Assembly: GCA_965217865.1 (NCBI GenBank)
Contig: CBDCJO010000002.1
Location: forward strand, 160,001-224,000
Length of the DNA stretch: 64,000 nt
From: Candidatus Latescibacterota bacterium
GTDB lineage: Bacteria; Latescibacterota; UBA2968; SICM01
Reading direction: 5' to 3'
This document shows, one piece after another, positions 21,324-36,255 of the stretch. Every line of letters begins with the position of its first letter. Within the stretch, counting starts at the first letter, position 1. The notes under the pieces were generated by a model, which did not search any database, was not told the DNA's origin, and saw only the letters and a list, made by a program, of their open reading frames with translations. A program made the position numbers and the translations under genes.

Positions 21324-21602
21324 GGCGATCTCGATGGCTTCGGTCTGGTGCCGGTATAACACGAGGCGCCGGAAGATCTTTCCGCATTCCGGGTCGAGAG
21401 TGCCGTGTGACACAAGTTCGTCGACGGACCCACCCGGTACGAAGTTCGGGTTCAACTGGATGAGCGGGACGGGCCAGAAACGGCCACCGGCGTAAGCCTC
21501 GTCGACGGCTTGGTCGATGTCTGCCGCGCGGATGTTGGTGAAGCTTCGAGAAAAGCGTTCGTATTCTGAAATGAGTTCCTCACGGAAAGCGAAGACGTCC
21601 AT
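21324..21602 (-). pseudogene. N-terminal fragment of a large DEAD/DEAH (DUF1998-type) helicase
   Basis: MDVFAFREELISEYERFSRSF...WPVPLIQLNPNF...LYRHQTEAI. Confidence 0.7.
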
Positions 21603-21699
21603 CAGGCACCCTCCCCTCGCTCGAAGCGCTCAAGCACCTCAACCAGGTCAGTCAACGGCACCGCCATCTCGAACTATTGTACCGGTCCTCCGAAGCAGC

Positions 21700-22119
21700 C
21701 GCGGCAGCGTATCACTTGGAGAATACCTGCAGCTCCTGAAGGAGAAACTCGACCTGGAAAGAAAGGGAAAGGCTCTCGCGTCTTTCCTAGGTGTTGAATC
21801 TGATTTGATTCCAAAGTTAGAGACAAATACGGTCTCAATAGTGTCAATACCATTGCGTGAATTATATTCCATGGGTCGTAGCATAGGACTGAATACTGGC
21901 ACCTACCTTGAACTTCTTAGGAAGTCACATAGGCTTCACAACATCGGACCTAGATATAAAGGAGCTGCCAGGTATGATTCTAGGGAGGGAACCAAAGGGA
22001 AGGAGCAATCAATGAAAATCGCCTATGAGGAGCTGCTTCTCAAAGGTAAAGCAGAAGAAAGAGATAATGATCTGGAATCGCATCTGCACGCTCTGAGAGA
22101 GATGTTGGAAAAGAGCTAA
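21700..22119 (+). pseudogene. 3' part of an HTH-like protein preceding ImmA/IrrE
   Basis: SLGEYLQLLKEK...LASFLGVESDLIPKLE. The 5' part of ORF 21517 is antisense to the helicase fragment, so it is chimeric. Confidence 0.45.
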
Positions 22120-22610
22120 TGGAAGAACTCCCAAGGAAAAGAACAGGCTACTGCAGGATGGCAGCGCGGAGTCTGCTTTCGAGATACAGCAAAGGAGCAG
22201 GTGATATCAGACCGCCAATTCCTGTCTGTGATATAGCTAAGTTTAATGGCTATAAGGTGGTGCTCCTTGAAACACTGACGGACAAACACTCGGCCATTGT
22301 GGACTTGCATGAGAAACTTATTGGAGTGAATAAGAAGCATCACTCACACAGGAGAAGGTTCTCCATAGGCCACGAACTCGGCCACATCTATCTTGAACAT
22401 CCTTCGGAAGACGAGCAATCTGAAGAGGAAGTGAAGTATTTTAACCTCGAAGCGAACGAATTCGCCGGTGAGCTACTTGTACCTCTACATTATCTGAAAC
22501 TCGAATTAAAGCAATGCAAGAATATGGATCAGCTTGCGAATCATTTCAACGTGAGTCCCGAAGTGGTATTCAGGAGGATCTCTTCCCAAGGGCTGTTGTC
22601 ATACATATAG
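22119..22610 (+). CDS. ImmA/IrrE-family metallopeptidase
   Basis: RRRFSIGHELGH...EANEFAGELLVP. Confidence 0.9.
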   Translation: MEELPRKRTGYCRMAARSLLSRYSKGAGDIRPPIPVCDIAKFNGYKVVLLETLTDKHSAIVDLHEKLIGVNKKHHSHRRRFSIGHELGHIYLEHPSEDEQSEEEVKYFNLEANEFAGELLVPLHYLKLELKQCKNMDQLANHFNVSPEVVFRRISSQGLLSYI

Positions 22611-22637
22611 TCTTGTAAATTAGTTAGTTAATGGGAT

Positions 22638-22675
22638 AAGGCCGCGTTCTCTCGGGAGCGCGGCCGTTCCTTTTG
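22638..22675 (+). terminator. intrinsic terminator
   Basis: GGCCGCGTTCTC-TCG-GGAGCGCGGCC hairpin followed by a T-rich tract. Confidence 0.6.
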
Positions 22676-23165
22676 TCCGGGGTGTAACCCGGTTTCGTTT
22701 ATATAAGTATAAGGTTCGGAAACCGCCGCGACAAGAACAACACCATGCTGGCCGAAATTGCATCCGGAAGATTTCCGGCAAAAGTGGATAAGGTAGACAG
22801 CGTCACTTCCGCGCTGCCCTCATTTCTTCATCTGCGCGGCGACTCCCGAAGGCAGGCTGAGCCTTCGCTAAAGGACATCCATCGTCCGTTTCCGGGTTCC
22901 GCTCTCGCAATCGATTAACTGAATGTCGGGACGGATCCAGCAATAGAGCTTCGAAAGGGCGGCCGCGGTTCGTACGGCCGAGGGGTACTGCCACTATACG
23001 GAGATCATGCCGGACGAGCCGGGGTTCAGGCCGGATTTCGTGGTGGCCGGCAGCACGGAGCGCGGGAATTCACCGCCGCCTCGGCGAACATCGGATCGCT
23101 ATGATGCGCAATAGGATCGAGTTGTTCGAATTCCCCTTAACTTTCCACAACCGGAGAAACAACCT

Positions 23166-23414
23166 ATGAATGGTGACACGCAAATTATCGTGAGTGGTCG
23201 TGAGTACAAGGTCTCTGGCAATGTCGTGACCTACGAGCAGGTCGTGAAGATCTGGAACGAGCTCCATGATGCAGAGAACAAGCACATCATCGGCACGCCC
23301 GGCATCGACTACGAAGACAGCCTGAAAGGCGAGGACGGTGTCCTCCTGCCGGGCAAGGACGTTGAAGTCAAGGACGGCACGAGCTTCTCGGTAGACCCCG
23401 AGCATGTCTCGTGA
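23166..23414 (+). CDS. single-domain ubiquitin-like (multi-ubiquitin-domain family) protein
   Basis: IIVSGREYKV...VTYEQVV...LLPGKDVEVKDGTSFSV; ends in Ser. Confidence 0.7.
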   Translation: MNGDTQIIVSGREYKVSGNVVTYEQVVKIWNELHDAENKHIIGTPGIDYEDSLKGEDGVLLPGKDVEVKDGTSFSVDPEHVS

Positions 23415-24592
23415 GGGACCGTCTCTCCACGTTCGCTGAGCAGGCCGGGTTTGCCGTCAGGGTCGATTCCGACGTCGTCCTGGCCGTCCGGGTTCCTTGT
23501 CTGCTTGCAGACGGGGTTGTTGGCACTTGTACCATTGAGAAGTCCTACGACCCTATGAACGGGAAACCGAATGACCGGATAGGTGGCGCAGTCCATGCGG
23601 TGCGGATCACCGCTGACGAAGAGCACGACGGGCGCGTGTACCACGCGGACGGGAACCCGATTGAGAGCTACATCGCCGGCGACGGCAAGACCTGGTCGAA
23701 CATCTCCATCCGGAAAGGTAGCCAAAACAGCCCGGAGGAGGACGTGTCGGCGAGCGACTTGATCCACCGCTATGCGAAGCAGATCGTCGGGGCCGTGTCG
23801 GCGGACGGCTACTCCGAAACCGCTTCTCTCGGGAGGCGGGGTCCGTTCAAGATCCCGAACACTTTCGAGGCACGAGCGGCGATAGGCTCGGTTCAGGATC
23901 GCATCCGTGATCAGAGCATTGCGATCATCGGCTTGGGCGGAACGGGCGCCTACGTCCTAGACCTTATTGCGAAGACGCCAGTGGCGGAAATCCATCTTTT
24001 GGATTCCGACGACGTTGACTGGCACAACTTCATGCGCTCACCGGGCGCACCTACTGTCGAGGAGATTGAGTCGCGTCCCAAGGGGCGCCTGCGCAAAGTG
24101 GACTACTACCATTCCAAGTATGCCTCCCTCCGGGAAGGCATCCACCCGCACGCTGTTCGAGTGGACAGCCCGTCCATATTCGCCGAGTTTCTGTCGGCGC
24201 ATCCCGTCGACTATGTCTTCGTGTGTATCGACCAACTGACCGACGGCGATTCGCCGCGTCAGAACGTCGTCTACTGCGCGCTCTCAGCGGCGGAGGTCCC
24301 GTTCATAGACTCGGGTGTGAGCATTACGCTGGAAGACCACGCCGTCAGAGGGGCTGTGACGACGAGCGCCTATGCCGCAGGCTCTCGCGCGTGGAAGGAT
24401 GCCATTCCGAATGCCAGAGTCGAGGGCAATGTCCCCGGCTACCGCAACGTCCAGCTGCCGGAAGTGAACGCGTTGGCGGCGTCGCTTGCCGTGATGGAGT
24501 GGCGGCGTCGCACGGAACAGTATGTTTCGGGGTCGGCTTCGTTCCTCCACAAGTTCCGGCTCGAGACGCCGCGCATTGTCACAGCAGACTGA
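23411..24592 (+). CDS. ThiF/E1-like adenylyltransferase with N-terminal DUF6791-like domain
   Basis: IAIIGLGGTGAYVLD, HNFMRSPGA, FVCID, YRNVQLPEVNALAA; GTGA overlap with the Ubl gene. Confidence 0.85.
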   Translation: MRDRLSTFAEQAGFAVRVDSDVVLAVRVPCLLADGVVGTCTIEKSYDPMNGKPNDRIGGAVHAVRITADEEHDGRVYHADGNPIESYIAGDGKTWSNISIRKGSQNSPEEDVSASDLIHRYAKQIVGAVSADGYSETASLGRRGPFKIPNTFEARAAIGSVQDRIRDQSIAIIGLGGTGAYVLDLIAKTPVAEIHLLDSDDVDWHNFMRSPGAPTVEEIESRPKGRLRKVDYYHSKYASLREGIHPHAVRVDSPSIFAEFLSAHPVDYVFVCIDQLTDGDSPRQNVVYCALSAAEVPFIDSGVSITLEDHAVRGAVTTSAYAAGSRAWKDAIPNARVEGNVPGYRNVQLPEVNALAASLAVMEWRRRTEQYVSGSASFLHKFRLETPRIVTAD

Positions 24593-24601
24593 CTCGCAGG
24601 A

Positions 24602-25027
24602 ATGACGCCCGTGAAACTCCGCCCCGTCTTCGTAGACGTATTGCCCGATTTTGACGCAATCAAAGCCGGTGAGCTCTGGATTAGCCACAAGTACCGGACT
24701 GTCAACCTGCGCTGCCCCTGCGGTTGCGGCGATCTGACAGTGCTGTCTCTCCACCCAAGCCGCTGGCACGTTCATTTCGATGGCAAGTCGGTCTCTCTGG
24801 ACGGTCCTAGGGGTGGGTCCGTGTGGGCCAATTCCGGCTGCGGCAGCCACTACTTCATAAGGAACAACGCTGTCATTTGGGCGCGTAGAATCGATCCAGG
24901 CCGTCATTCGGAGTATGCCCAAGTCGAACGGACGCGGCTGATTGCGTCTCAACGGAGCCGTCTGGCTTGGCGCTCCTGGCTCAAAGGTGTTTTCCGCTGT
25001 CTGTCGCTAGGGAGTTGGCGTAAGTAG
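24602..25027 (+). CDS. DUF6527-family protein
   Basis: GELWIS..Y.TVNLRCPCGCG...SVW..SGCGSHYFIR. Confidence 0.8.
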   Translation: MTPVKLRPVFVDVLPDFDAIKAGELWISHKYRTVNLRCPCGCGDLTVLSLHPSRWHVHFDGKSVSLDGPRGGSVWANSGCGSHYFIRNNAVIWARRIDPGRHSEYAQVERTRLIASQRSRLAWRSWLKGVFRCLSLGSWRK

Positions 25028-25111
25028 AGCGCCGCATTTCTTCTGGGTTGACCAGACGCGTGACCCGCGAGTGTGTGCTTGATTGCGTTCTAGTCGGTAC
25101 GTACATTGGGG

Positions 25112-25412
25112 TGATATGACCCGGGAAAAGTGAACAGTGGTTTAAGCCGCTTTCTGCAGCGATAGGCGTTCAAAAAGGGCCGGGGACACATAGTCCAGGT
25201 AAGCGTGCAGCCGCTGATTGTTGTAAAACATTTCGATGTACTCGAAGAGTTCGCGCTCTGCATGATCGAGGTCGATCAAGTCGACGTGATACAGCCATTC
25301 GGTCTTCAAGGTTTTGAAGAATGACTCGGAGACGGCATTGTCCCAGCAATCGGCCTTCTTGCTCATGCTTTGAACAAACTGATGCGCGTCGACGGCCTTT
25401 CGGAAGCCATCG
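25112..25412 (-). mobile_element. IS3-family right-end fragment, copy 2
   Basis: MSKKADCWDNAVSESFF...; terminal TGATATGACCCGGGAAAAGTG. Confidence 0.85.
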
Positions 25413-25820
25413 CTACAGCCGATTGGCCGGAGGACTTCGCGAATGGCACCGCTCGACAGATATCAATTGGCGGACGACAGGTTTCGGTTATATTTGAGAA
25501 GGTTGGTGACATCCCCTGATCTCAGGGCATCACTCTTGAGAAGTTCGGGCTAGTTACGCCCCACCCTCCGGGAGCAGCACCAAGGGCGTCACGGAGGGAT
25601 CGGAAACCAGTATCTCTTGGAAGGCGACCTTTTCAACACGGTCGGGGGTGGAGACCGTCCGCTCAAACGGGCTCAACGAAGTCAATCATCGTTTGGATGC
25701 CGCGCTGCAATCCTCCCCGCTTTCACAACACTATGATGACGAGGACTCATTCCAAGCTCTTCATGGAATGTCGACTTGTCGACCGGTCGAATAACCACCA
25801 CGCGACGCGAAAACAGGTCT

Positions 25821-28800
25821 ATGAATACAACCAGATACAGCCATCCCTCCTCAAGTGTGTTGCGCGCATGCCTGTTCGCATTGGTCTGTCTCACCTTCTC
25901 GTCTGTCGGGGGATATGCTTCTCCTCAGCCATCGGAAGCCGACAACGTGCATTTTTGCCGACCCCTCGATTTTGAAGAAACGAGAGACCGCGATAGCTCC
26001 TATGCCGCTCGCAAGCAGGCGTTTGACTTGAATGTTGGGGAACCCCGCACCGTACGGATGATCTACTTCTTGCCCAATGACCGCCCGTTTCGCGCAGAAG
26101 TGGTTCAGCGGATGAAAGATGAGATTCGCCAGATTCAGGCCTTCTATGCAGAACAGATGCAGGCGCACGGATACGGGAACAAAACCTTCCGCATTGAAAC
26201 GGATGCGCAGGGCGAGCCGATGGTTCATCACGTGGATGGTCAACACCCCGATAGTCACTATCTTGACAACACATTCCAGGCTATGAATGACGAGATTGAA
26301 CAGGTGTTTGATCGTGATGCGAACATTTACTTCACCGTCATTGACAATAGTATAGATGGAATTCGTACTGGGCGTGTTTGGAATGCGGGAGGAACAGGAG
26401 GCGACCGGGGAAAAAATGCTGGCTTTGTGTTGGTTCCTGGGGGATTTAGCTTCAGGACGGCGGCACATGAACTTGGACATGCTTTCAGATTGAAGCACGA
26501 TTTCAACGATGATACGTACATCATGTCGTATGGCGGCGGCCAGCGACGCTCTCTATCTGCGTGCAATGCCGAATTTTTGGCTGTGCATCCCTACTTCGAT
26601 CCCAGTGTTGAAGCGCAAGAAGCTCCGCCGCCGACAATCGAACTCATTTCACAGACCGGCTATCCGGCAGGCTCAAGAAGCGTCTCCGTTCAACTCGAAG
26701 TCAGCGACCCGGAAGGACTTCACCAAGTGCTCCTGTTCGTTAGAACAAGAGAAACACACTACGCCGCCGGATCGCTTGAAGTGAAGGCGTGTCGTGGATT
26801 GAAGGGCGCAAGAGAAGCCGTCGTTGAATTTGATTATAACGGTGTTATCCCATCTGATGGTTTGACGAGTCTTTCCAACCCTGACGCGCATCCGATTCAT
26901 GTCGAGGCCGTTGATACGGATGGGAATGTGGGCTATGCGTATTTTACCCTTGTGAAAATTTCGCCACAACATATCGCCACCCTGGGGGGGCATACGCGTT
27001 TTGTCCGATCTGTTGCGTTTTCACCCGATGGCACGACCCTCGCTTCGGGGTCACAGGATAGCACAGTCAAGCTGTGGAATGTTGCGACACGAACAAATAT
27101 CGCCACCCTGGGACACACGCATTTGGTTCGTTCTGTGGCATTTTCACCCGACGGAACAACCCTCGCTTCAGGGTCGAATGATGAAGCAGTTAAGCTGTGG
27201 GACATTGCGACACGAACAAACATCGCCACCCTTGAGGGGCATACGCGTGTTGTCCGATCTGTTGCGTTTTCACCCGATGGCACAACACTCGCTTCAGGGG
27301 CAGCGAGCGAAATCAAGCTATGGGACGTGGCGACAGGACGCAATATCGCCACCCTTGGGCATCCGTATATTGTCGACGCTGTTGCGTTCTCGCCCGATGG
27401 AACAACGCTCGCTTCAGGATCGGATGATGAAACGGTCAAGCTGTGGGACATTGCAACGCGAACAAATATCGCTACCCTGGAGGGGCATAAGTCCTGGGTC
27501 AATTCGGTGTCGTTTTCACCCGACGGGACAACGCTCGCTTCAGGATCGGATGATGAAACGGTCAAGCTGTGGGACATTGCAACGCGAACAAATATCGCCA
27601 CCCTTGAGGGGCATAAGTCTTCTGTCCGTTCTGTTGCGTTCTCGCCCAATGGCACGACCCTCGCTTCGGGGTCACGGGATAACGCTTCAGGGTCATTGGA
27701 TAACACGGTCAAGCTGTGGGACGTGGCGACGGGACAAAATATCGCGACTTATAGGCATAGGGATAAGCATTCTGGTCAGGTGCAATCTGTCTATTCTGTA
27801 GCGTTTTCACCCAATGGCACGACCCTCGCCTCGGGGGCAGGGTCTTGGGATGGGAATGGCACGGTCATTCTGTGGGATGTATCTGGGCGGTTACGACCCC
27901 GTCCTCGAACGCTTGTGAAAATCTCAGGCGACAACCAGCAGGGCACGCCCGGTGCCGCGTTGTCGAACCCCATGGTCGTTGAAGTGAACGATCAGTACGA
28001 TCATCCCTTACCGGGTGCGCAAATCATGTTTACGGTCACCGCGGGCGAGGGGAGGCTCAGCGGGAGATTCACTGTCGAGCACGCAAAGACCGGTGCCAAC
28101 GGCAGAGCAGAGAACACTCTGACACTTGGGAGCATTCCGGGGCCGAACACCGTTGAGGTATCTGTCACTGGACTTGAGCCTGTGACCTTCAACGCTGTGG
28201 GAGTTGGAACGTCCACCACATCAATCATGGGTGGTGATTATCGGACATGGCATTTACCCGATGGCGCAATAATCCGCCTGGGAAAAGGACGCATTGGTGA
28301 GGGCGACAGGGCAGTGGCGTTTTCGCCGGATGGTCAACGCCTCGCCGTGGCAAGTGGTATCGGTGTCTGGCTTTACGATGTGGCGACCTCTCGTGAACTC
28401 GCGCTATTCACCGGACACACGGGTGATGTCAGGACCGTGGCGTTCTCTCCCAATGGCACGATGCTGGCTTCCGGGTCTTATAATCACACAGGGTCACGAG
28501 ATAGTGGTACGCTCAATCTGTGGAACGTGGCGACAGGAGAAAATATCGCCACCCTTGGGGGGTACAACCGCACTTGGCGGGAGTCTGTCCAGTCTGTGGC
28601 GTTCTCACCCGACGGCACAACACTCGCCTCGGGGTCTCATGGTGATATCAAGCTATGGGACGTAGCGACACGGACAAATATCGCCACCCTTGAGGAGCAT
28701 ACGGAGTGGGTCTTTTCTGTGGCATTTTCACCCGATGGCACAACACTCGCCTCGGGATCACAGGACCGCACGGTTAAACTGTGGGATGTGGCGACGCGAA

Positions 28801-29318
28801 CAAATACCGCTACCCTGAGGCATGGGACTGGGGACGAGGGCATCATCCGTTCTGTTGCGTTCTCACCCGACGGCACAACACTCGCCTCGGGAGCGTGGGC
28901 TAAAACGGTCAAACTGTGGAACGTGACGACAGGAGAAAATATCGCCACACTAAAGCATCATACGTATAATGTCGAGGCCGTGGCGTTTTCACCCGATGGG
29001 ACGACACTCGCTTCAGGGTCTTATGATGATGTCAACCTATGGGACGTAGCGACGGGAGTAAATATCGCCACCCTTGCACATACGAGTACGGCTTTTTCTG
29101 TGGCGTTCTCACCAGACGGCACAATGCTCGCTGCAGGATTACGGGATGATGGAACGGTCAGACTATGGAATTTCACAACACAAAACATCGCCATACTAAG
29201 GCATAGTACCAGGGTTGAATCTGTTGCGTTTTCACCCGATTCCAGTACATTCGGTTTGAAAAGGAAAACGCTCAATGCGTTGGATTCTCGGGCGGGCCGC
29301 TATATCTTATGTCCGTGA
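25821..29318 (+). CDS. secreted Zn-metalloprotease + WD40 beta-propeller + Ig-like protein; both termini chimeric
   Basis: HELGHAFRLKH; many VAFSPDGTTLASGS..TVKLW repeats; LVKISGDNQ Ig-like module. The repeat breaks off at ~29240. Confidence 0.85.
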   Translation: MNTTRYSHPSSSVLRACLFALVCLTFSSVGGYASPQPSEADNVHFCRPLDFEETRDRDSSYAARKQAFDLNVGEPRTVRMIYFLPNDRPFRAEVVQRMKDEIRQIQAFYAEQMQAHGYGNKTFRIETDAQGEPMVHHVDGQHPDSHYLDNTFQAMNDEIEQVFDRDANIYFTVIDNSIDGIRTGRVWNAGGTGGDRGKNAGFVLVPGGFSFRTAAHELGHAFRLKHDFNDDTYIMSYGGGQRRSLSACNAEFLAVHPYFDPSVEAQEAPPPTIELISQTGYPAGSRSVSVQLEVSDPEGLHQVLLFVRTRETHYAAGSLEVKACRGLKGAREAVVEFDYNGVIPSDGLTSLSNPDAHPIHVEAVDTDGNVGYAYFTLVKISPQHIATLGGHTRFVRSVAFSPDGTTLASGSQDSTVKLWNVATRTNIATLGHTHLVRSVAFSPDGTTLASGSNDEAVKLWDIATRTNIATLEGHTRVVRSVAFSPDGTTLASGAASEIKLWDVATGRNIATLGHPYIVDAVAFSPDGTTLASGSDDETVKLWDIATRTNIATLEGHKSWVNSVSFSPDGTTLASGSDDETVKLWDIATRTNIATLEGHKSSVRSVAFSPNGTTLASGSRDNASGSLDNTVKLWDVATGQNIATYRHRDKHSGQVQSVYSVAFSPNGTTLASGAGSWDGNGTVILWDVSGRLRPRPRTLVKISGDNQQGTPGAALSNPMVVEVNDQYDHPLPGAQIMFTVTAGEGRLSGRFTVEHAKTGANGRAENTLTLGSIPGPNTVEVSVTGLEPVTFNAVGVGTSTTSIMGGDYRTWHLPDGAIIRLGKGRIGEGDRAVAFSPDGQRLAVASGIGVWLYDVATSRELALFTGHTGDVRTVAFSPNGTMLASGSYNHTGSRDSGTLNLWNVATGENIATLGGYNRTWRESVQSVAFSPDGTTLASGSHGDIKLWDVATRTNIATLEEHTEWVFSVAFSPDGTTLASGSQDRTVKLWDVATRTNTATLRHGTGDEGIIRSVAFSPDGTTLASGAWAKTVKLWNVTTGENIATLKHHTYNVEAVAFSPDGTTLASGSYDDVNLWDVATGVNIATLAHTSTAFSVAFSPDGTMLAAGLRDDGTVRLWNFTTQNIAILRHSTRVESVAFSPDSSTFGLKRKTLNALDSRAGRYILCP

Positions 29319-29509
29319 GGTTCTTGTCCCGAGAGCGAAAAGTGGAGAAATAACGATAATTGTTGCTCGCAGGGCGCGGGACTGGGGTGTTCCGAATGGA
29401 AGACATATCATTGTGTACAGGTCATCTGAATCCCGTGGGCAACATCTATCACTTAATAGTCGAGGAGGAAAGGCCATTGCGAAAAGGCTTGGGATATGAC
29501 CATTCTCCT

Positions 29510-30760
29510 TCAGCTCTCCGGCACATATGGCGATTTCCATAATTGACGAATATCATCGATTTCCTGCTTGATCATGGCAATCCGCTCTATTCCCAGCCCA
29601 AAAGCAAATCCGCTTACCCTCTTGACATTGAAACCCGCCTGGCGTAACATATCTTCTTTCAGAAGCCCGCAGCCGCCCATTCCAAACCATTTTTCGTTCC
29701 ATCTGATATCGAATTCAATACCAGCTTCGACAAACTTGAAATCATGATTGCGCCAACGGATCTCGACTTCTCCGAACACCGCAATGAGCGTTTGCCGGAC
29801 CGTTGATTTCAGGGTCTGAAGATCAGCGGTTTGGTCGATGCAAATCCCATCGACTTGATGGAAGACTTTGGAATGACGTCGATCTTCACTGTCCGATCGA
29901 AAAACTCTTCCGGCCGCGAGCAAACGCACGGGTGGTTTCCGTCCCTTTATCGCCTGAAATGTCGTGTGGGTCGTATGGGTCCGGAGGATTTCATTATCGC
30001 TTACGTGATAAGCCATTTCGGTGACTCCCATATCCTCCTCCACCGATCTATCTACGATTTCCTCACCGCCGATGATTTCATACGAGGACAGGGCGGTCCG
30101 GATCTGTTCCCAGATCGTTCTGACCGGATGCCCTTCGATCTCCATCGGTTTTGGCCTATTGAGCAGCTCCCCCACCACTTTCTCGCTGAAACGTTCATCA
30201 GGTGAATGATCCTTCAGGGATTCGCTGACCATTTCGATCATCCTTTCTTTTAATCTCTTTCTGGAGTCGTGCAGTCGCTTTTTGACGGTGGTCACGGGCA
30301 ACTCCAGAAAATCGCCGATTTCTTTTTGAGAATATCCATCGATGTAGAACAAAGCTGTCACGGTCCTTTCGTGTTCCGCGAGGGTCCGAAGGGCCTGGAT
30401 CACTTTTTCCTTCAATTCTTTCGCTTCCATTATTTCATCGGGAGAAGGCTCAGATGAGGTTATCTCAGTCGTGTCTTCAAGCGAAATTGTTGGAACCGGC
30501 CTGTCCCGCGTGAACCGGTCGCAATGCTTGAAGATGATCTTTCGGAACCATCCGGGGAAAGCATCAGGATTTTGAAGCTGCGAAAGTTTCAAGAAGGCTT
30601 CGATGAATGCCTCCTGCGCGGCATCCTCGGCTAACTGAAAGTCATTGAGGAGCGAGTAGCAATAGCCCACGGCCATATCCTGGAAGCGTCGAACGATCGT
30701 TCCATATGCGTTTAGGTCGCCGGACTTGGTCCGAAGGATTAAAGATTGGAGTTCTTCCAC
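29510..30760 (-). CDS. ECF sigma-70 factor fused to a phenylalanyl-tRNA synthetase alpha-like catalytic domain
   Basis: Sigma2 AEDAAQEAF and sigma4 YSQKEIGDFLELPVTTVKKRL; then GHPV, LRTHTT, GRVFR...H...FHQVDG, GCG and GFAFGLGIERIAM. Confidence 0.88.
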   Translation of the reverse strand: MEELQSLILRTKSGDLNAYGTIVRRFQDMAVGYCYSLLNDFQLAEDAAQEAFIEAFLKLSQLQNPDAFPGWFRKIIFKHCDRFTRDRPVPTISLEDTTEITSSEPSPDEIMEAKELKEKVIQALRTLAEHERTVTALFYIDGYSQKEIGDFLELPVTTVKKRLHDSRKRLKERMIEMVSESLKDHSPDERFSEKVVGELLNRPKPMEIEGHPVRTIWEQIRTALSSYEIIGGEEIVDRSVEEDMGVTEMAYHVSDNEILRTHTTHTTFQAIKGRKPPVRLLAAGRVFRSDSEDRRHSKVFHQVDGICIDQTADLQTLKSTVRQTLIAVFGEVEIRWRNHDFKFVEAGIEFDIRWNEKWFGMGGCGLLKEDMLRQAGFNVKRVSGFAFGLGIERIAMIKQEIDDIRQLWKSPYVPES

Positions 30761-30796
30761 TTTTTCCCCGTTTCTGAGAAGGTTCCTTCTATAAAG

Positions 30797-30825
30797 TAAG
30801 ACCCGATTCTTCCTTTAAAGGTTAC
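30797..30825 (-). promoter_or_regulatory. putative ECF-type (autoregulatory) promoter
   Basis: Minus strand GTAACC-N17-GTCTTA, 36 nt upstream of the GTG start. Confidence 0.5.
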
Positions 30826-30856
30826 TGAAGTCCTGAAGAAACTTCAATATTATTAT

Positions 30857-31001
30857 GGTAATTAGGAAGATATTGGTACCAGATTCACCAGATATGAAGC
30901 AATAATTGGGAAGAGATCCTCGTCTTCCTGGTTGAATCTGAACTCTGTTTCCTTCAGGTATAAATGGAAATGATGTCGAGGGATTCCTCTGTATTGATAT
31001 A
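30857..31001 (-). mobile_element. IS1595 right-end fragment
   Basis: Near-identical inverted copy of 379..523. Confidence 0.85.
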
Positions 31002-31444
31002 CACGAGACGCCCTCGCCCGACTGCTCTCCGATTTCGACGCGCCGCCGCCCATCGGGCACCGGCTCACGCGGGAGGCTCGGCTCGACATCCGCAGCGTAG
31101 CAGCAGATCCCTTCACTTCGCCCTCGGGCTCGACCACGCGACGCCCGAACTTGAAGACGGGAACTTCCGTTCGAGCAGCCAGACGGCTGGCTGCCATGTC
31201 GGAGGCTCGGCTTCAGCGGATGAAGCTGATACCCCGGAAGAGTGAGGTCCTGAGGCCTGACGGCTTGGTCAAGGTCCGCCATAGCCACCGCAATCCGCTC
31301 CGCCTGATCAGCGCGCAGCTTGCTGAGATCTCCTCGCTCATAAAGCCGCTTGAGGCCACGATGGCGAAAAGCCCGAATGAAGCTGCGGCAGGTCCCTGAT
31401 CCGAGATGGGAGAGGAAAACTGATTTTTGACGCGGCCTTCCCCC

Positions 31445-31845
31445 TCTGCGGTGCGGGCGTGATTACGGTAGATCCTTTCAATACAGCAAGTTACGACTGA
31501 CGAACAGAGAATGGTTCCGGGGAGAGGATCATATGGGGAGCCAGATTCCCATCCGCCAACTTCGGCGGTCGTCCGTTAACGCAAGACTCCGTGGGGCAAC
31601 CCTTCGGGGTCTTGTCGTTTCTGTCGTATTCACAAACACTTGGGCCACCTCCTTCCCCTCTCTGCCGATTCTCTGTTTCGAAGCATTTCCCCCGGTGTCC
31701 GAGCACAACCGTGGGGTTGCGTCCGTTGAGCAGAGATATCTCCTCCGGATTCTCTGATTCTCTGTTTTTCCCGTCGGCTTTATTTAACAGCCTGGTTCGA
31801 CGTTTGGGAACGTCCCCCGGTATGTATTCACTGGAGCCGGACCAG
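31445..31845 (+). repeat. diverged copy of the non-coding element at 19355..19765
   Basis: Colinear similarity, e.g. GACGAACAGAGAATGGTTCCGGGG, CCCATCCGCCAACTT, GAGCAGAGATATCTC. Confidence 0.85.
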
Positions 31846-31859
31846 TTCCCCCGAATTTG

Positions 31860-32345
31860 AGCAGTTCCGCGTCGGAGGTTTCCCGTCCGGGCTCCGTACC
31901 ACCACGTCACCCACTGCCCCCCCCTGCCGGTGAACGCAGGGTTTTGCTGGTCAGCCTTGTATTTCAGGGTATCGGTACCGGAGACGATCCCGATGATGGT
32001 GTCTGTTTCGTTAGAGTTTGCCGCCTTCCCCGCCGTGTTTCCTGAAACGTCTCTCGTCGTCGCCCTCACGACTATGGTTTCGCCAACGAAATTAATGGAG
32101 TCCGGCGCACCAGATCCCACCGTCACCGCCATGCCGCCCGCGACCGGCTTGGTGCTCGCCTTCAGCGCGACCGTCTTTCGTACGATGAAGCGATTCGCAT
32201 AATTTTGCGCAACGAAGGCGGTCGCGATCCCTGCATCGCTGGTATCCACTGCATTCTTGTGGGAGAACAGAAGGTCGTCGGCCCTGAATTCGACCACGAT
32301 CCTCGCGTTCGACTCCGTGGCCCCCAGGGTATCAACGAAACCCGG
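31860..32345 (-). pseudogene. internal fragment of a beta-rich secreted protein
   Basis: T/S/G/A/V-rich open frame (IVVRATTRDVSGN..DTLKYKADQQNP) without native ends. Confidence 0.4.
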
Positions 32346-33254
32346 TGCTGTGCCGGGCCGTAAGTCATACTCCCCCCACGATCGCTTTTTTTGTGGAGGT
32401 CGCATCGTTGCCCGGATTCCGAATTAAAGTCGCACACGGGCCGGATTCCGTGCCTCAGCGGGCGATTCCGTGCCAAGGGGGGGGGGTTGGATTCCATAAT
32501 TTCGGAGCGAGTATAAAAAGGCGGGTGGGTGAGGTCCCCCCAGCAACGAGGCCGGTCGTCGTGTCCGGGCAGGTCCCTCAACGCCCACCGGATCGAAACC
32601 GCCGTGGTGGAGCACGTCCGCGGCATCGGGATGAACCAACAGGTCGTGGCGGCCACGGTGGCCAAAGCGCGGGAACAACGGCTGACCGCTTCTCCGGGAA
32701 GAGGGTCCCGCTCTTGAGCGGGAAGCCGTGGATGAAAGCGACCTGGCCCCGCGGTGAACGGTGCCCGCGAGCTCGCCTGGGTCTACACGATCGAGACCAC
32801 GCGCATCAAACGGCGCCGGATCGTCTCCGGCTGCTGGCCGGAGTAACGGCCCGCCCAGTCGCTACCGCCCTCCGCAGCGCCAGGGACTGACCGAGTCTCC
32901 AGACCTCAACTGAAGCGCCACCGCCGGATCGGTGCCACTCAGGACTTCAGTCCTTCTCGCCGCTTCGAGAACTCCATCGATCTCGACTCCCGCCGCAATC
33001 TCATCACTGATGCTGGCAACCCGGCTCCCGAGTCCGGATCGCCTAAACGCGGTTAGTTATGGAAAGGATCGTTGGGGCGTGCCCAGAGCCGGAAGAGCTT
33101 GAAGCATCCCCCCGCGAGAGCTTGTCCTGGAAAGCGTAGACCATGCCGGCACTCGAAGGCGGAGGGGTGGGGATGCGGTGGCCTTGTCGCTCCCAGTCGT
33201 AGCGGACGCTTTGCGTCATAGGTAAATGCCCGCGGCGCTCGTCACGGTCATGAC

Positions 33255-33500
33255 CACGGTTCGCCCCCCGCATCCGTTTCAAGGCGGAAGGTTTTGTTCC
33301 CGTATCCATGCGTCTGCATCCGCTCGGCATGGAAGGTCCACGTCTGGCGAATCGAAACTTTCATCTTTACTCATTGACCCCGAAGCGAGCATCGCCCCAT
33401 CGGGTGAAAACGACACCGGACAGACCCCTCCCGCATTCCCTTCAGAGGAAGAGACCCGGTCAACGCGAAAAGGCAAGCCCTTAACAGGAAGTACGGGCGA
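33255..33500 (-). pseudogene. scrambled remnants of a metalloprotease-WD40 paralogue
   Basis: RACLFALTG, VSFSPDGAMLASGS and GYGNKTFRLETD pieces. Confidence 0.65.
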
Positions 33501-33596
33501 CCCTGGCGAGGTGGGGGGGTAAAAGTGTTCAGGGATCGACTTTGTGAAGCCGCATGTCCGCCTTTTGGGTTGCAAGCAATTTCCGTAGGCTGAAAA

Positions 33597-33660
33597 CCAC
33601 AATATGTTGTGGTTTTTGACGGACGAGAATTATATATATTTAATAAACAATATGTTGCGA
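33597..33660. promoter_or_regulatory. tandem NrdR-box-like palindromes
   Basis: CCACAATATGTTGTGG (33597) and AAACAATATGTTGCGA (33645). Confidence 0.55.
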
Positions 33661-33789
33661 CTGCGAAGGGGTACAAACGAGAGGACCTGAATCCTGGCGT
33701 TGTGTGATTTGGCAGGGTTCTTTATATTTGGGATTGAAAATAATTGACAAAACCCGACTCCCAATGGGCGGGCCTGTCGTAGTCTCAGT

Positions 33790-33905
33790 GTGACAAGGGG
33801 AGAGGGTATGAAGCGCGGTATGATCTGGATGGCGATGGCACAATTGGGATTGGTGATTTTTTTGTCTTTTCCAACGACTTCCGCAAAGAAGCGTCATCAA
33901 ATTGA
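33790..33905 (+). pseudogene. EF-hand/dockerin-like C-terminal fragment
   Basis: GYEARYDLDGDGTIGIGDFFVFSNDF; a similar piece lies at 42342..42440. Confidence 0.65.
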
Positions 33906-33956
33906 CCTGTCTGTACGTGCAGGCGGATGTCTTTCACTTGAAAAGAGCATAACCTG

Positions 33957-35378
33957 ATGCAAAAATCCGTTCTTCGTCTCACCTCACCAATCAGATTGAG
34001 GGCTTGCCTTTTCGCGTTGACCGGTTTCTTCCTCTCCCCGATGTTTGTCAGCCATGCTTCTCCACAGCCGGCAAATGATGTGCATTTCTGCCTGCCCCTC
34101 GATTTTGAAGAAATGAGAGAGAGCGATAGTCTCTATGCTGCTCGCAAGCAGGCGTTTGACTTGAACGTTGGCGAATCCCGCACCGTGCGGATGATCTACT
34201 TCCTGCCCAATGACCGTCCGTTTCGCGCAGAAGTGGTTGATTCGATGAAAGTTGAGATTCGCCAGATTCAGACCTTCTACGGCGAACAGATGCAGGCGCA
34301 CGGATACGGGAACAAAACCTTCCGCTTTGAAACCGATGTGCAGGGCGTGCCGATGATTCATCGCGTGGATGGTCAACACCCCGACAGTCATTATCTTGAC
34401 CTCACATTTCCGGCTATGTATGACGAGCTTGAACAGGCGTTTGATCTCCGTGCGAACATTTACCTCCTTGTCATTGATAATAGTGGTGGAATTGATATTG
34501 GTTCTCGGCGTGTGGGAGGAATAGGAGGCGCCCGGGGAAAAAATGCTGGCTTTGCGTTGGTTCATGGGGGATTCGGCTTCAAAACGGCGGCCCATGAACT
34601 TGGACATGCCTTCGGATTGCAGCACGATTTCAACGATCACCCGTACTTCGATGAACCGTACATCATGTCATATGGCAACAGCCAACGATACTCTCTATCT
34701 GCGTGCAATGCCGAATTTTTGGCTGTGCACCCCTACTTCAATCCCAGTGTTGAAGCGCAAGAAGCGCCACCGCCGGCAATCGAACTCATTTCACAGACTG
34801 GCTATCCGGCAGGCTCGAGAAACGTCACCGTTCAACTCGAAGTCAGCGACCCGGAGGGACTTCACCAGGTGCTCCTGTTCGTTAGAACAAGAGAATTCCA
34901 GGCCGCCGGATCGCCTGAAGTGAAAGCGTGTCATGGATTGGCGGGTGCAAGAGATGCCGTCGTTGAATTTGATTATGACGGTGTCATTCCGTCTTATGAC
35001 TTGACGAGTCTTTCCAACCCTAACGCGCATCCCATTCATGTCCAGGCCGTTGATACTGACGGGAATGTTGGGCGGGTGCGTTTTAACCTCTGGGAAATTT
35101 CGCTACAACATATCGCCACCCTTAGGCATACAAATTGGAAGGATGAACCACTCCTTGCATCCCTTACGGCAGCGTCTGTACATGGCACCGTCGCGACAGG
35201 CGAATGGGCTGGACAACGGATCCGTCGTCGCTGGTCGATCCAAAGGAAGGAATCCGGGGCGGATCCCTCTGGGTCTCATCCCGTATTCTCTCATTTGAAA
35301 TGCCCCTTTTTGATGGCCTTTTGTTTTTTTTCACATTTCAACTATAGGCAAAATCAAGAAAAATTTACGCTTGTATAG
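33957..35378 (+). pseudogene. secreted Zn-metalloprotease paralogue of 25821, truncated at the start of its WD40 region
   Basis: Signal peptide, HELGHAFGLQH, YIMSY Met-turn; homology stops at ~35135. Confidence 0.8.
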
Positions 35379-35429
35379 GGAATAGCCTTAGAAGATGTAA
35401 CCTAAGATTCTAAAGGAGCTGAACCCGTG
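35367..35429 (+). repeat. ~62-bp promoter/RBS-like direct repeat, copy 1
   Basis: ACGCTTGTATAGGGAATAGCC...CTAAAGGAGCTGAACCC(G/A)TG, repeated at 38727. Confidence 0.8.
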
Positions 35430-35798
35430 AACGAAAGACAAGACAAAAATCCCGAAGACGACTTCTACCTGCACGTCAACACCACGGCCGGTGCCTTCAT
35501 TATGTCCGACACCGTGTTGACCGAAAACTTCGATAAAGACTACATCGAATTGATCACCCTCTCCGAGCGAAACTTCCTTGAGGGAGAGCTGCGGGAGATA
35601 ACCCCTTTGCCGTATCGAAAGGAGTTGGACGATCTTGTTGAGGAGATCAACCGGCAGATCGGCACGCCGGAGTTCGGCAATGGGATGACGGTCCGTGAAT
35701 CCTGGATACACGGGACCAGGGATTTCCCGTCACCGGAGCAGATCGAGCGGGCGGGGGGACACCTCGTCTTTTCCCGTTTGACGTTTCACGACGTTTGA
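35427..35798 (+). CDS. hypothetical protein
   Basis: 123-aa ORF with AAGGAG RBS; the 3' end may be chimeric. Confidence 0.5.
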   Translation: MNERQDKNPEDDFYLHVNTTAGAFIMSDTVLTENFDKDYIELITLSERNFLEGELREITPLPYRKELDDLVEEINRQIGTPEFGNGMTVRESWIHGTRDFPSPEQIERAGGHLVFSRLTFHDV

Positions 35799-35985
35799 CG
35801 GCTTTTTTGACTTCTGACTTCTGTATTCTGTATTCTGTATTCCGGTGGGGATGGGTGGAAGGGACTTACTTGCTACTGCTTTTCCCGTTTGACGTTTCAC
35901 GTTTGACGTTTGCCTTTCCTGCCGTTGCCACTGCTTTGCCTTCTCACGGTCTTTCCATCGTCTATCGTCCATTGTCCATCGTCAA
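35775..35985. repeat. cluster of heptamer tandem repeats
   Basis: (TTTGACG/TTTCACG)n, (TTCTGTA/TTCTGAC)n and (CCATCGT/CTATCGT)n. Confidence 0.75.
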
Positions 35986-36255
35986 TTTCATATGCGCAAT
36001 TATTTATGACGTAAAGTAGTGTTGAAAAATGTGCTCCAGGTCTATAACGGTCCTAATTTCTCTTATGAAATTCTCTGTCTGAAATCCTTTCAATATAGAT
36101 AGATAAAAGATACAGATCCTCAAATATCCATTTCTACCATTGAGGAATTGCAACCCTTTTACAACCCAAGCGACCCCCTGCTCCCATACCCGATCGGATT
36201 CCGGGTGTTATGACGAAACCTTGATTTTTAAATACGCCCTTCTTCTGCATCAAAT

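Follow-up and report, generated by a model that had tools for sequence, protein, structure and literature searches.

A sigma factor of the ECF type and a domain that derives from an aminoacyl-tRNA synthetase share a single reading frame at positions 29510..30760 of the window, the 64,000-nucleotide stretch of DNA analysed here (window features lie on the minus strand unless stated otherwise), and the gene is confirmed as real: it encodes a conserved ECF of the one-component type whose C-terminal domain stems from a synthetase. The frame, supported by ORF call, translation, Pfam and homologue search, opens with GTG and runs for 416 aa uninterrupted by a stop, as a preliminary description made from the letters alone had claimed. 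Pfam recovers the domain order given there, placing sigma region 2 (Sigma70_r2, aa 22-78, 30527..30697) and sigma region 4 (Sigma70_r4_2, aa 118-170; mapped here as aa 118-172, 30245..30409) ahead of a class II synthetase core (tRNA-synt_2d, aa 193-410, E 2.6e-51). The sigma part consists of sigma2 and sigma4 without sigma3, and NCBIfam identifies it as an ECF sigma by TIGR02937 (85.9 bits against a cut-off of 42.9).

The fusion family is apparently undescribed in the literature searched: the preliminary description knew of no account of it, and none was found in full-text literature, a coverage that ends at subscription journals. The main text and the consulted part of the supplement of PMC7826278 contain no synthetase, ankyrin or SecA extension among the ECF groups and no GTATCC/GGGTCT motif, while the consulted portions of PMC8999054 make no mention of tRNA and those of PMC11580382 none of sigma. 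The fusion is a PheRS paralogue, of which the text consulted from a 2022 review (PMC9437257) names none, nor does that text name a sigma. If the predicted role is true, this would be the first case, as far as our searches show, of a sigma factor under the control of an aminoacyl-tRNA-synthetase fold.

The fusion family and its surroundings

The preliminary description had allowed for a chance chimera, and a domain-architecture search speaks against it: PF01409 and Sigma70_r4_2 occur in 120 of the 120 homologues listed (of 3,509 matches), Sigma70_r2 in 119 of them, and their identity to the fusion ranges from 47 to 94%. The homologues carry source names such as Latescibacteria, Planctomycetota, Phycisphaerae, Hydrogenedentota and Poribacteria, and a 26%-identical version resides in genome G025. 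With the C-terminal domain as query, a sigma part is found in 28 of the best 150 representatives (50% clustering). The ESM Atlas holds five matches at 0.95 or above with the same domains, and Myxococcota or Acidobacteriota are commonest in the three clusters listed there. A quick, unrooted tree places 53 fused domains on one side of a branch and 35 canonical PheS on the other (SH-aLRT 99). The fusion was detected in 2 of 168 genomes of its own phylum at E 1e-30, two further matches being canonical PheS, and in 5 of 401 genomes of another class; a sigma-pattern scan of contigs (4 of 64 parts) gave 2 full fusions among 80 loci, and two of the 26 metagenome pattern matches (L112 and L128) are not homologues. 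This patchy spread would suit a chimera that lies in a mosaic region and is functionless or selfish, as would the duplicated and truncated copies and the IS-like neighbours in the genome at hand. However, conservation over the full length down to about 25% identity, a mean column conservation of 0.69-0.78 in the core blocks of the domain, and the conserved promoter and codon signal presented below largely refute such a reading, which we regard as highly improbable.

The same genome carries a second full copy of the fusion (90% identical), together with a 5'-truncated copy and a fragment. The truncated copy, L002 (G000 C2:557250-558260), is 99.8% identical and begins at about residue 155, and it has lost the sigma part while retaining the internal Shine-Dalgarno-like sequence and ATG177 described below; its junction is a loose end in run X5, and four contig runs cover the fusion gene piecewise. 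Among the homologues, P0129, P0139 and P0160 are fusions with a third C-terminal part, which is GNAT-like in P0129, and the catalytic arginines are absent from P0160, P0179 and P0226.

As to its standing towards the genuine synthetase, the fusion is, judged by gene content, an additional paralogue besides canonical PheS, since canonical pheS is present along with the fusion in G169, G025 and G047 (three of the four other genomes checked) and pheT is cut in the fusion's own assembly. Canonical pheS was found neither in G168, the fourth of these genomes, nor in the own assembly (G000). The idea that the fusion is the genome's only PheRS alpha was rejected: the assembly's only pheT listed as full-length sits at the end of contig C2 and is cut there (model positions 34-798), so that canonical pheS most likely falls in an assembly gap. 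This pheT is far outside the window, in keeping with the preliminary description, which had seen none by the gene.

That description had also reported no anti-sigma gene, and the neighbours agree, since downstream comes a convergent WD40 gene and upstream a repeated element, leaving no separate anti-sigma gene. The repeated element (30850..31001, no strand assigned; 24 hits in the genome) abuts the promoter, is regarded as context outside the module and has a weak IS1595-transposase match that stays below the cut-off (E 0.033). Rfam returned 0 matches for window positions 25000-36000, no tRNA gene was found in the window, and PADLOC assigned 0 families to the fusion. Across loci, the next gene downstream of the fusion is convergent in 11 of 20 and on the same strand in 9 of 20, and Pfam on 83 of the 102 called neighbours from 24 loci revealed nothing common except methyltransferases, in 5 loci.

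Several other genes of the window deserve mention. A HigB-like toxin ORF (31151-31399, minus strand; Pfam E 5.8e-6) adjoins an IS-like remnant, with no clear antitoxin ORF called. Two related zinc-metallopeptidase-like proteins (25776-29318 and 33957-35378, plus strand), the first with many WD40 repeats, belong to a family that is multi-copy in the genome. On the plus strand, 21517-25027 encodes an IrrE/capP-like peptidase (22119-22610), a Multi_ubiq protein (23166-23414), a ThiF/E1-like protein (23411-24592) and a DUF6527 protein (24602-25027), an arrangement that resembles the ubiquitin-like anti-phage operons of bacteria known as Bub/Bil.

The synthetase-like domain

The PheRS-alpha-like class II core spans aa 202-416 (29513..30157), as delimited by Pfam, the alignment to the E. 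coli protein and a structure model. An AlphaFold2 prediction from 121 sequences (mean pLDDT 84.6) has the PheRS alpha fold, and the best of 48,161 chains for this model is E. coli PheRS alpha (Z 25.8, rmsd 2.1 A over 206 residues), HisZ chains matching at Z about 16. All of the motifs listed in the preliminary description (GHPV, LRTHTT, GRVFR..H..FHQ, GCG and GFAFGLGIERIAM) are present in the translation, and so are HQVDG, FKFVEA and WFGMGG, which it had read at canonical motif sites. Motif 2 (aa 284-304, 29849..29911) retains Arg288, His296, Phe300, His301 and Gln302, with Glu changed to Asp at 304, and motif 3 (aa 384-393, 29582..29611) retains Arg393, which upholds the earlier statement that the motif 2 and 3 arginines are kept.

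The sites were compared across the family, with residue roles in adenylate binding, the Phe pocket and the gate as given in the consulted part of PMC8136816; sites were numbered from the E. coli alignment, and M. tuberculosis residues were assigned to E. coli ones by us from motif spacing. With rows gapped at the sites in question dropped, all residues of the adenylate set (Arg288/Phe300/Glu or Asp392/Arg393) are found in 108/120 close members, 19/28 divergent members and 41/42 canonical controls; the corresponding figures for the full canonical Phe-pocket set are 0/120, 0/28 and 37/41. The pocket changes are consistent, Ser171 being replaced by Thr in 102 of 121, Gln174 by Thr in 80 and Glu210 by Asp in 99 of 121. 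These counts support selection on the adenylate site, and selection has, as far as the alignments tell, kept a nucleotide/adenylate site beside a reshaped pocket. Other parts of the domain have drifted: the degenerate FPFTEPS loop (aa 341-347, 29720..29740) is its least conserved block (0.39), and the Mg-binding glutamates are variable (E349 in 69 of 121, E360 in 62 of 121). The family retains motif 1 HP and the DDIR tail and has, in place of the C-terminal tail and N-terminal flank, the family-specific invariant residues L199, P203, W408, P411 and Y412.

The features that would bring tRNA to the domain are gone. No Phe_tRNA-synt_N (PF02912) match was obtained with Pfam, so the tRNA-binding arm is absent, as described earlier, and another segment (aa 238-257, 29990..30049) stands in place of the NF..LN...HPAR gate for the tRNA 3' end of PheS; the HP[AS] gate is found in 0 of 121 close and 0 of 29 divergent members and in 40 of 50 canonical proteins. 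Since arm, gate and a linked pheT are all missing, tRNA charging or sensing is unlikely, and the fused domain very probably does no charging. Among the ligands that the preliminary description had proposed, uncharged tRNA is therefore not borne out, and plain Phe sensing is doubtful, the canonical pocket set being complete in none of the close members; a PheRS inhibitor or an adenylate fits best. We consider it reasonably likely that the predicted ligand contains an adenine nucleotide.

It is possible to read the same residues as those of a metabolic sensor resembling BirA, the main idea of the preliminary description, in which the domain would bind or adenylate an amino-acid-like metabolite and switch the sigma onto a regulon in trans. 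The adenylate residues retained in 108/120 are in line with this, as are the consistent Ser-to-Thr (102/121) and Glu-to-Asp (99/121) changes, which suggest a new substrate rather than decay. The missing tRNA arm and gate count against it, and the promoter data taken up below bear on it more directly.

Alternatively, the PheS-like half could be an active enzyme, such as a ligase for a non-standard amino acid, a protein modifier or an Ap4A synthase, with the sigma as its self-inducing expression device. Motifs 2 and 3 are intact, aminoacyl-tRNA synthetase paralogues often turn into such enzymes (PMC9437257, in the text consulted), and the internal start considered below would provide the enzyme in free form. 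However, no conserved partner, carrier or substrate gene lies nearby in 24 loci, the FPFTEPS loop and the Mg-binding glutamates vary, and the fusion scores below the cut-off of the model for the 'PheS-related mystery ligase SrmL' (NF051887; 124.6-126.5 bits, 126.5 at best, against 300). We consider an enzymatic role improbable.

Promoter motif, probable internal start and linker helix

The ECF-like promoter proposed earlier (GTAACC-N17-GTCTTA) is found at 30825-30797 and is real as a conserved motif. From upstream alignment and matrix scan, the predicted -35 element is GTAACCT (30819..30825) and the predicted -10 element GGGTCTT (30798..30804), which starts 14 nt past the 7-mer -35. Downstream of the -10 and just past the predicted transcription start lies a conserved AGAAGG..CCTT element with the palindrome AAGGCCTT (30779..30790), and then come the ribosome-binding site and the GTG from which the full-length protein starts (30758..30769). 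AAGG-N0-2-CCTT occurs in 11 of 23 upstream regions, and the palindrome AAGGCCTT in many promoters of the family and of the sigma clade to which it belongs.

The family consensus reads GTA(T/A)CCT-N14-GG(G/C)TCTT, mostly 31-39 nt ahead of the start. Of 23 upstream regions, 14 match at least 10 of 13 positions and nine fall below 10, with a mean match of 10.4 against 8.2 in 200 shuffles, but the seed had been selected by eye among the very loci counted, which makes this test partly circular. As a held-out test, 6.4 Mb were scanned with a matrix built from 50 upstream regions taken from other genomes: the two full fusions have the promoters ranked 1st and 3rd, and two sister sigmas those ranked 2nd and 5th, the matrix being long and including context that favours own promoters. 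That the sigma autoregulates its own gene is thus predicted from these motifs, and we consider it very probable. Two more clade sigmas carry the same promoter (G000 C2:4199056-4199802 and 4225018-4225668); one of them stops shortly past the linker beside an IS-like ORF, and in the other region 4 is missing and the sigma continues into a glyoxalase-like domain (both labels by eye).

How far the promoter reaches beyond the fusion bears on the BirA-like reading. Matrix sites scoring 18 or more number 10, against 0 in shuffles, and only four precede clade sigmas; the six elsewhere make a small regulon possible and would supply the targets in trans that such a sensor needs. However, a scan of the genome with the -35 and -10 elements only finds no excess (5 sites at 19 or above, against 4-6 in shuffled DNA), and the exact pattern, written after two of the upstream regions concerned had been viewed, occurs at 4 sites in five other genomes, and at 2 of these sites it is the promoter of the fusion itself. 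The remaining sites lie antisense within a cas1-like ORF and about 125 bp ahead of a superoxide-dismutase-like ORF (labels by eye), and genes of amino-acid metabolism do not recur near the fusion. A metabolic sensor acting in trans is therefore unlikely, and the motif counts lean towards a regulon that may be very small, possibly comprising only the sigma's own gene.

A second start signal appears to reside within the gene. The Shine-Dalgarno-like sequence AGAAAGGA (30241..30248), complementary to the tail of the genome's 16S, lies within codons Lys171-Met174 and sits 8 nt ahead of ATG177, from which a second product of 240 aa (29510..30232), helix plus PheS-like domain, is predicted on codon conservation. 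Arg173 is encoded by AGG in 23 of 23 loci, whereas AGG reaches at most 4/24 at 22 other conserved Arg sites, and fourfold-site identity is near saturation (0.36). Five loci added later all agree, which brings the totals to 28/28 for AGG at Arg173, 30/30 for ATG177 and 26/30 for RARAGGA ahead of it, with four duplicate loci and two non-homologous matches left out and near relatives perhaps still included. Other in-frame positions score equally in Shine-Dalgarno energy, but without a conserved start codon. Among the 21 loci whose starts align, the long form begins with GTG or TTG in 18, compared to roughly 40% genome-wide by a crude estimate, and the sister sigmas have ATG or TTG at position 177 in only 23 of 31. 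The internal start is probably used, giving a free 240-aa product, though the internal Shine-Dalgarno could instead be a pause site.

Two related ideas were considered. A stand-alone short gene was entertained on 12 proteins of 240-254 aa, 11 of which start at the Met174-177 positions; two of the 12 cluster with full fusions, and a contig ends 93 bp away from P0285, and no clear case of a free-standing short gene emerged. A frameshift is disfavoured, since no more than about 16 of 27 loci have the stop in the +1 frame after the internal Shine-Dalgarno.

The predicted short product would begin with the linker helices (aa 177-201, 30158..30232; MV..L...PDE.F..V..L), which resemble helix 4 of class I anti-sigma domains in a weak match. 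In those domains helix 4 is bound to sigma2, and it probably prevents the polymerase from binding (PMC7406223, as far as consulted). When 79 windows of the protein were compared with a profile made from the N-termini of 30 putative anti-sigmas encoded just after stand-alone ECFs and picked by eye, the three best all covered aa 176-210, with helix 4 as the aligned part (E 3.5e-4, probability 37%, a weak match). Phe191 is invariant across the clade alignment, Pfam gives no anti-sigma match for aa 177-200, and in a sigma-plus-linker model the linker has a pLDDT of 56-59 and the helix is not placed confidently. Whether helix 177-201 inhibits sigma2 strikes us as an even call on this evidence. A superposition of the sigma part of both models, in which anti-sigma-bound SigW or CnrH gave an rmsd of 3.5-4.7 A and polymerase-bound sigmas 22-30 A, was set aside because the predictor may default to compact forms.

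The sigma, the linker, the promoter and, less strictly, the start signal recur in sister sigmas with other C-terminal partners. The 34 C-termini in question comprise 18 with ankyrin, 5 with TPR or BFN+TPR, 2 that are F1 alpha/beta-like, 1 with SecA and 8 unassigned ones. Sister sigmas with shortened F1 alpha/beta-like or SecA-like domains lie at L050:5599-6699, L058:2346-3359 and L031:1192-3240, and in an ankyrin-partner sister (L070:5384-6300) an overlapping ATG opens a different frame for linker and partner, either because the gene is naturally split or because the assembly contains a frameshift.

The commonness of ankyrin and TPR partners in the clade suggests protein binding rather than small molecules, and the PheS-like domain might then be a mimic that binds PheT, or a toxin or phage protein attacking PheRS, with binding freeing the sigma. 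Protein-binding repeats in 23 of the 34 sister sigmas, the retained motif 1 HP and DDIR tail, and the loss of the catalytic arginines from some divergent members are in accord with such an interaction sensor. However, the tail and N-terminal flank have been replaced by family-specific invariant residues, and surface mimicry needs no strongly conserved buried adenylate site; this scenario seems quite unlikely.

A proposed one-gene loop and its relation to known systems

The simplest reading of all data is that a sigma and anti-sigma pair has collapsed into one frame. The best-fitting scenario, tentative and less than even in our estimation, is a sense-and-sponge loop in one gene that would work like mycobacterial ClpC2, with ligand, regulon and internal start all predicted. 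The short form and the fused copy would keep the sigma off through the anti-sigma-type helix, and a weak GTG for the long form combined with a strong ATG for the short one would hold the inhibitor in excess, as with ordinary separate anti-sigma genes. An adenylate-like or PheRS-directed ligand filling the pocket would release the sigma, which would transcribe its own gene and thereby amplify the loop, and the free PheS-like half would accumulate as a sponge for molecules aimed at the real PheRS. With few other targets, the rising product would be the PheS-like domain itself, which makes it a candidate sponge. A protective sponge role is conceivable, at slightly lower confidence if anything, and it is awkward for a faithful decoy that the Phe pocket appears to differ from that of real PheS exactly at the Phe-binding positions and that the FPF loop has the lowest conservation; the prevalence of ankyrin partners likewise speaks against a strict small-molecule decoy.

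It is tempting to extend the idea to the whole ECF clade as one-gene decoy alarms, in which a self-activating sigma and a nested in-frame anti-sigma would use a captured essential antibiotic or toxin target as sensor. The captured targets would be PheS here and SecA and an F1-ATPase subunit in the sisters, but this extension, including the list of targets, is speculative and on the whole unlikely. If true, an attack on the real target would free the sigma and flood the cell with decoy, and the catalogue of captured domains would map unknown natural inhibitors, including those of PheRS. Should the decoy reading hold for the fusion, the gene together with its promoter would provide a ready-made biosensor for toxic analogues of phenylalanine or for PheRS inhibitors of natural origin. 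Encoding a sigma and its inhibitor in a single frame would be a compact circuit design absent from ECF classifications, and each step is directly testable because the module consists of one gene and one promoter.

Set against known systems, the fusion is, by its architecture, an ECF with a regulatory-type extension and not a PheS. It shares with ECFs carrying a regulatory C-terminal extension the sigma2 and sigma4 regions, a fused soluble extension, an autoregulatory promoter motif and the lack of a separate anti-sigma gene, but differs in that its extension is an aminoacyl-tRNA-synthetase core with a conserved internal start signal. With PheS (TIGR00468) it has in common the class II fold, motifs 1-3 and the adenylate residues, whereas it lacks the tRNA arm and the 3'-end gate, has a changed Phe pocket and no adjacent pheT, occupies a separate tree branch and scores below the PheS model (163-165 bits against a cut-off of 237).

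HisZ and GCN2 are regulators of aminoacyl-tRNA-synthetase type derived from HisRS. Like these two and SrmL, the fusion reuses a synthetase core outside translation; those are HisRS-derived or stand-alone. BirA has a class II aminoacyl-tRNA-synthetase-like fold, and in BirA, as in the fusion, an adenylate-forming fold is joined to a transcription domain. BirA, however, is an active ligase and an HTH repressor of its pathway (PMC6391492, in the portion consulted), whereas no target pathway is seen for the fusion. In class I anti-sigma/ECF pairs such as those of RseA and RsiW (PMC7406223, as far as consulted), a helix 4 is likewise followed by a variable sensor, with a ribosome-binding site of its own; in the fusion the equivalent part is in frame with the sigma, the bundle of helices 1-3 and the zinc motif are absent, and the helix match is weak. 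ClpC2, a repressor and partial homologue of ClpC1, senses and sponges a ClpC1 antibiotic (PMC10030653, in the part consulted). The two proteins are not homologous, and ClpC2 is a repressor with a shown ligand, whereas the fusion would have a sigma output in a positive loop and a predicted ligand. At the level of architecture and motif, the fusion nevertheless parallels ClpC2 as a partial homologue of an essential protein that is tied to its own transcription.
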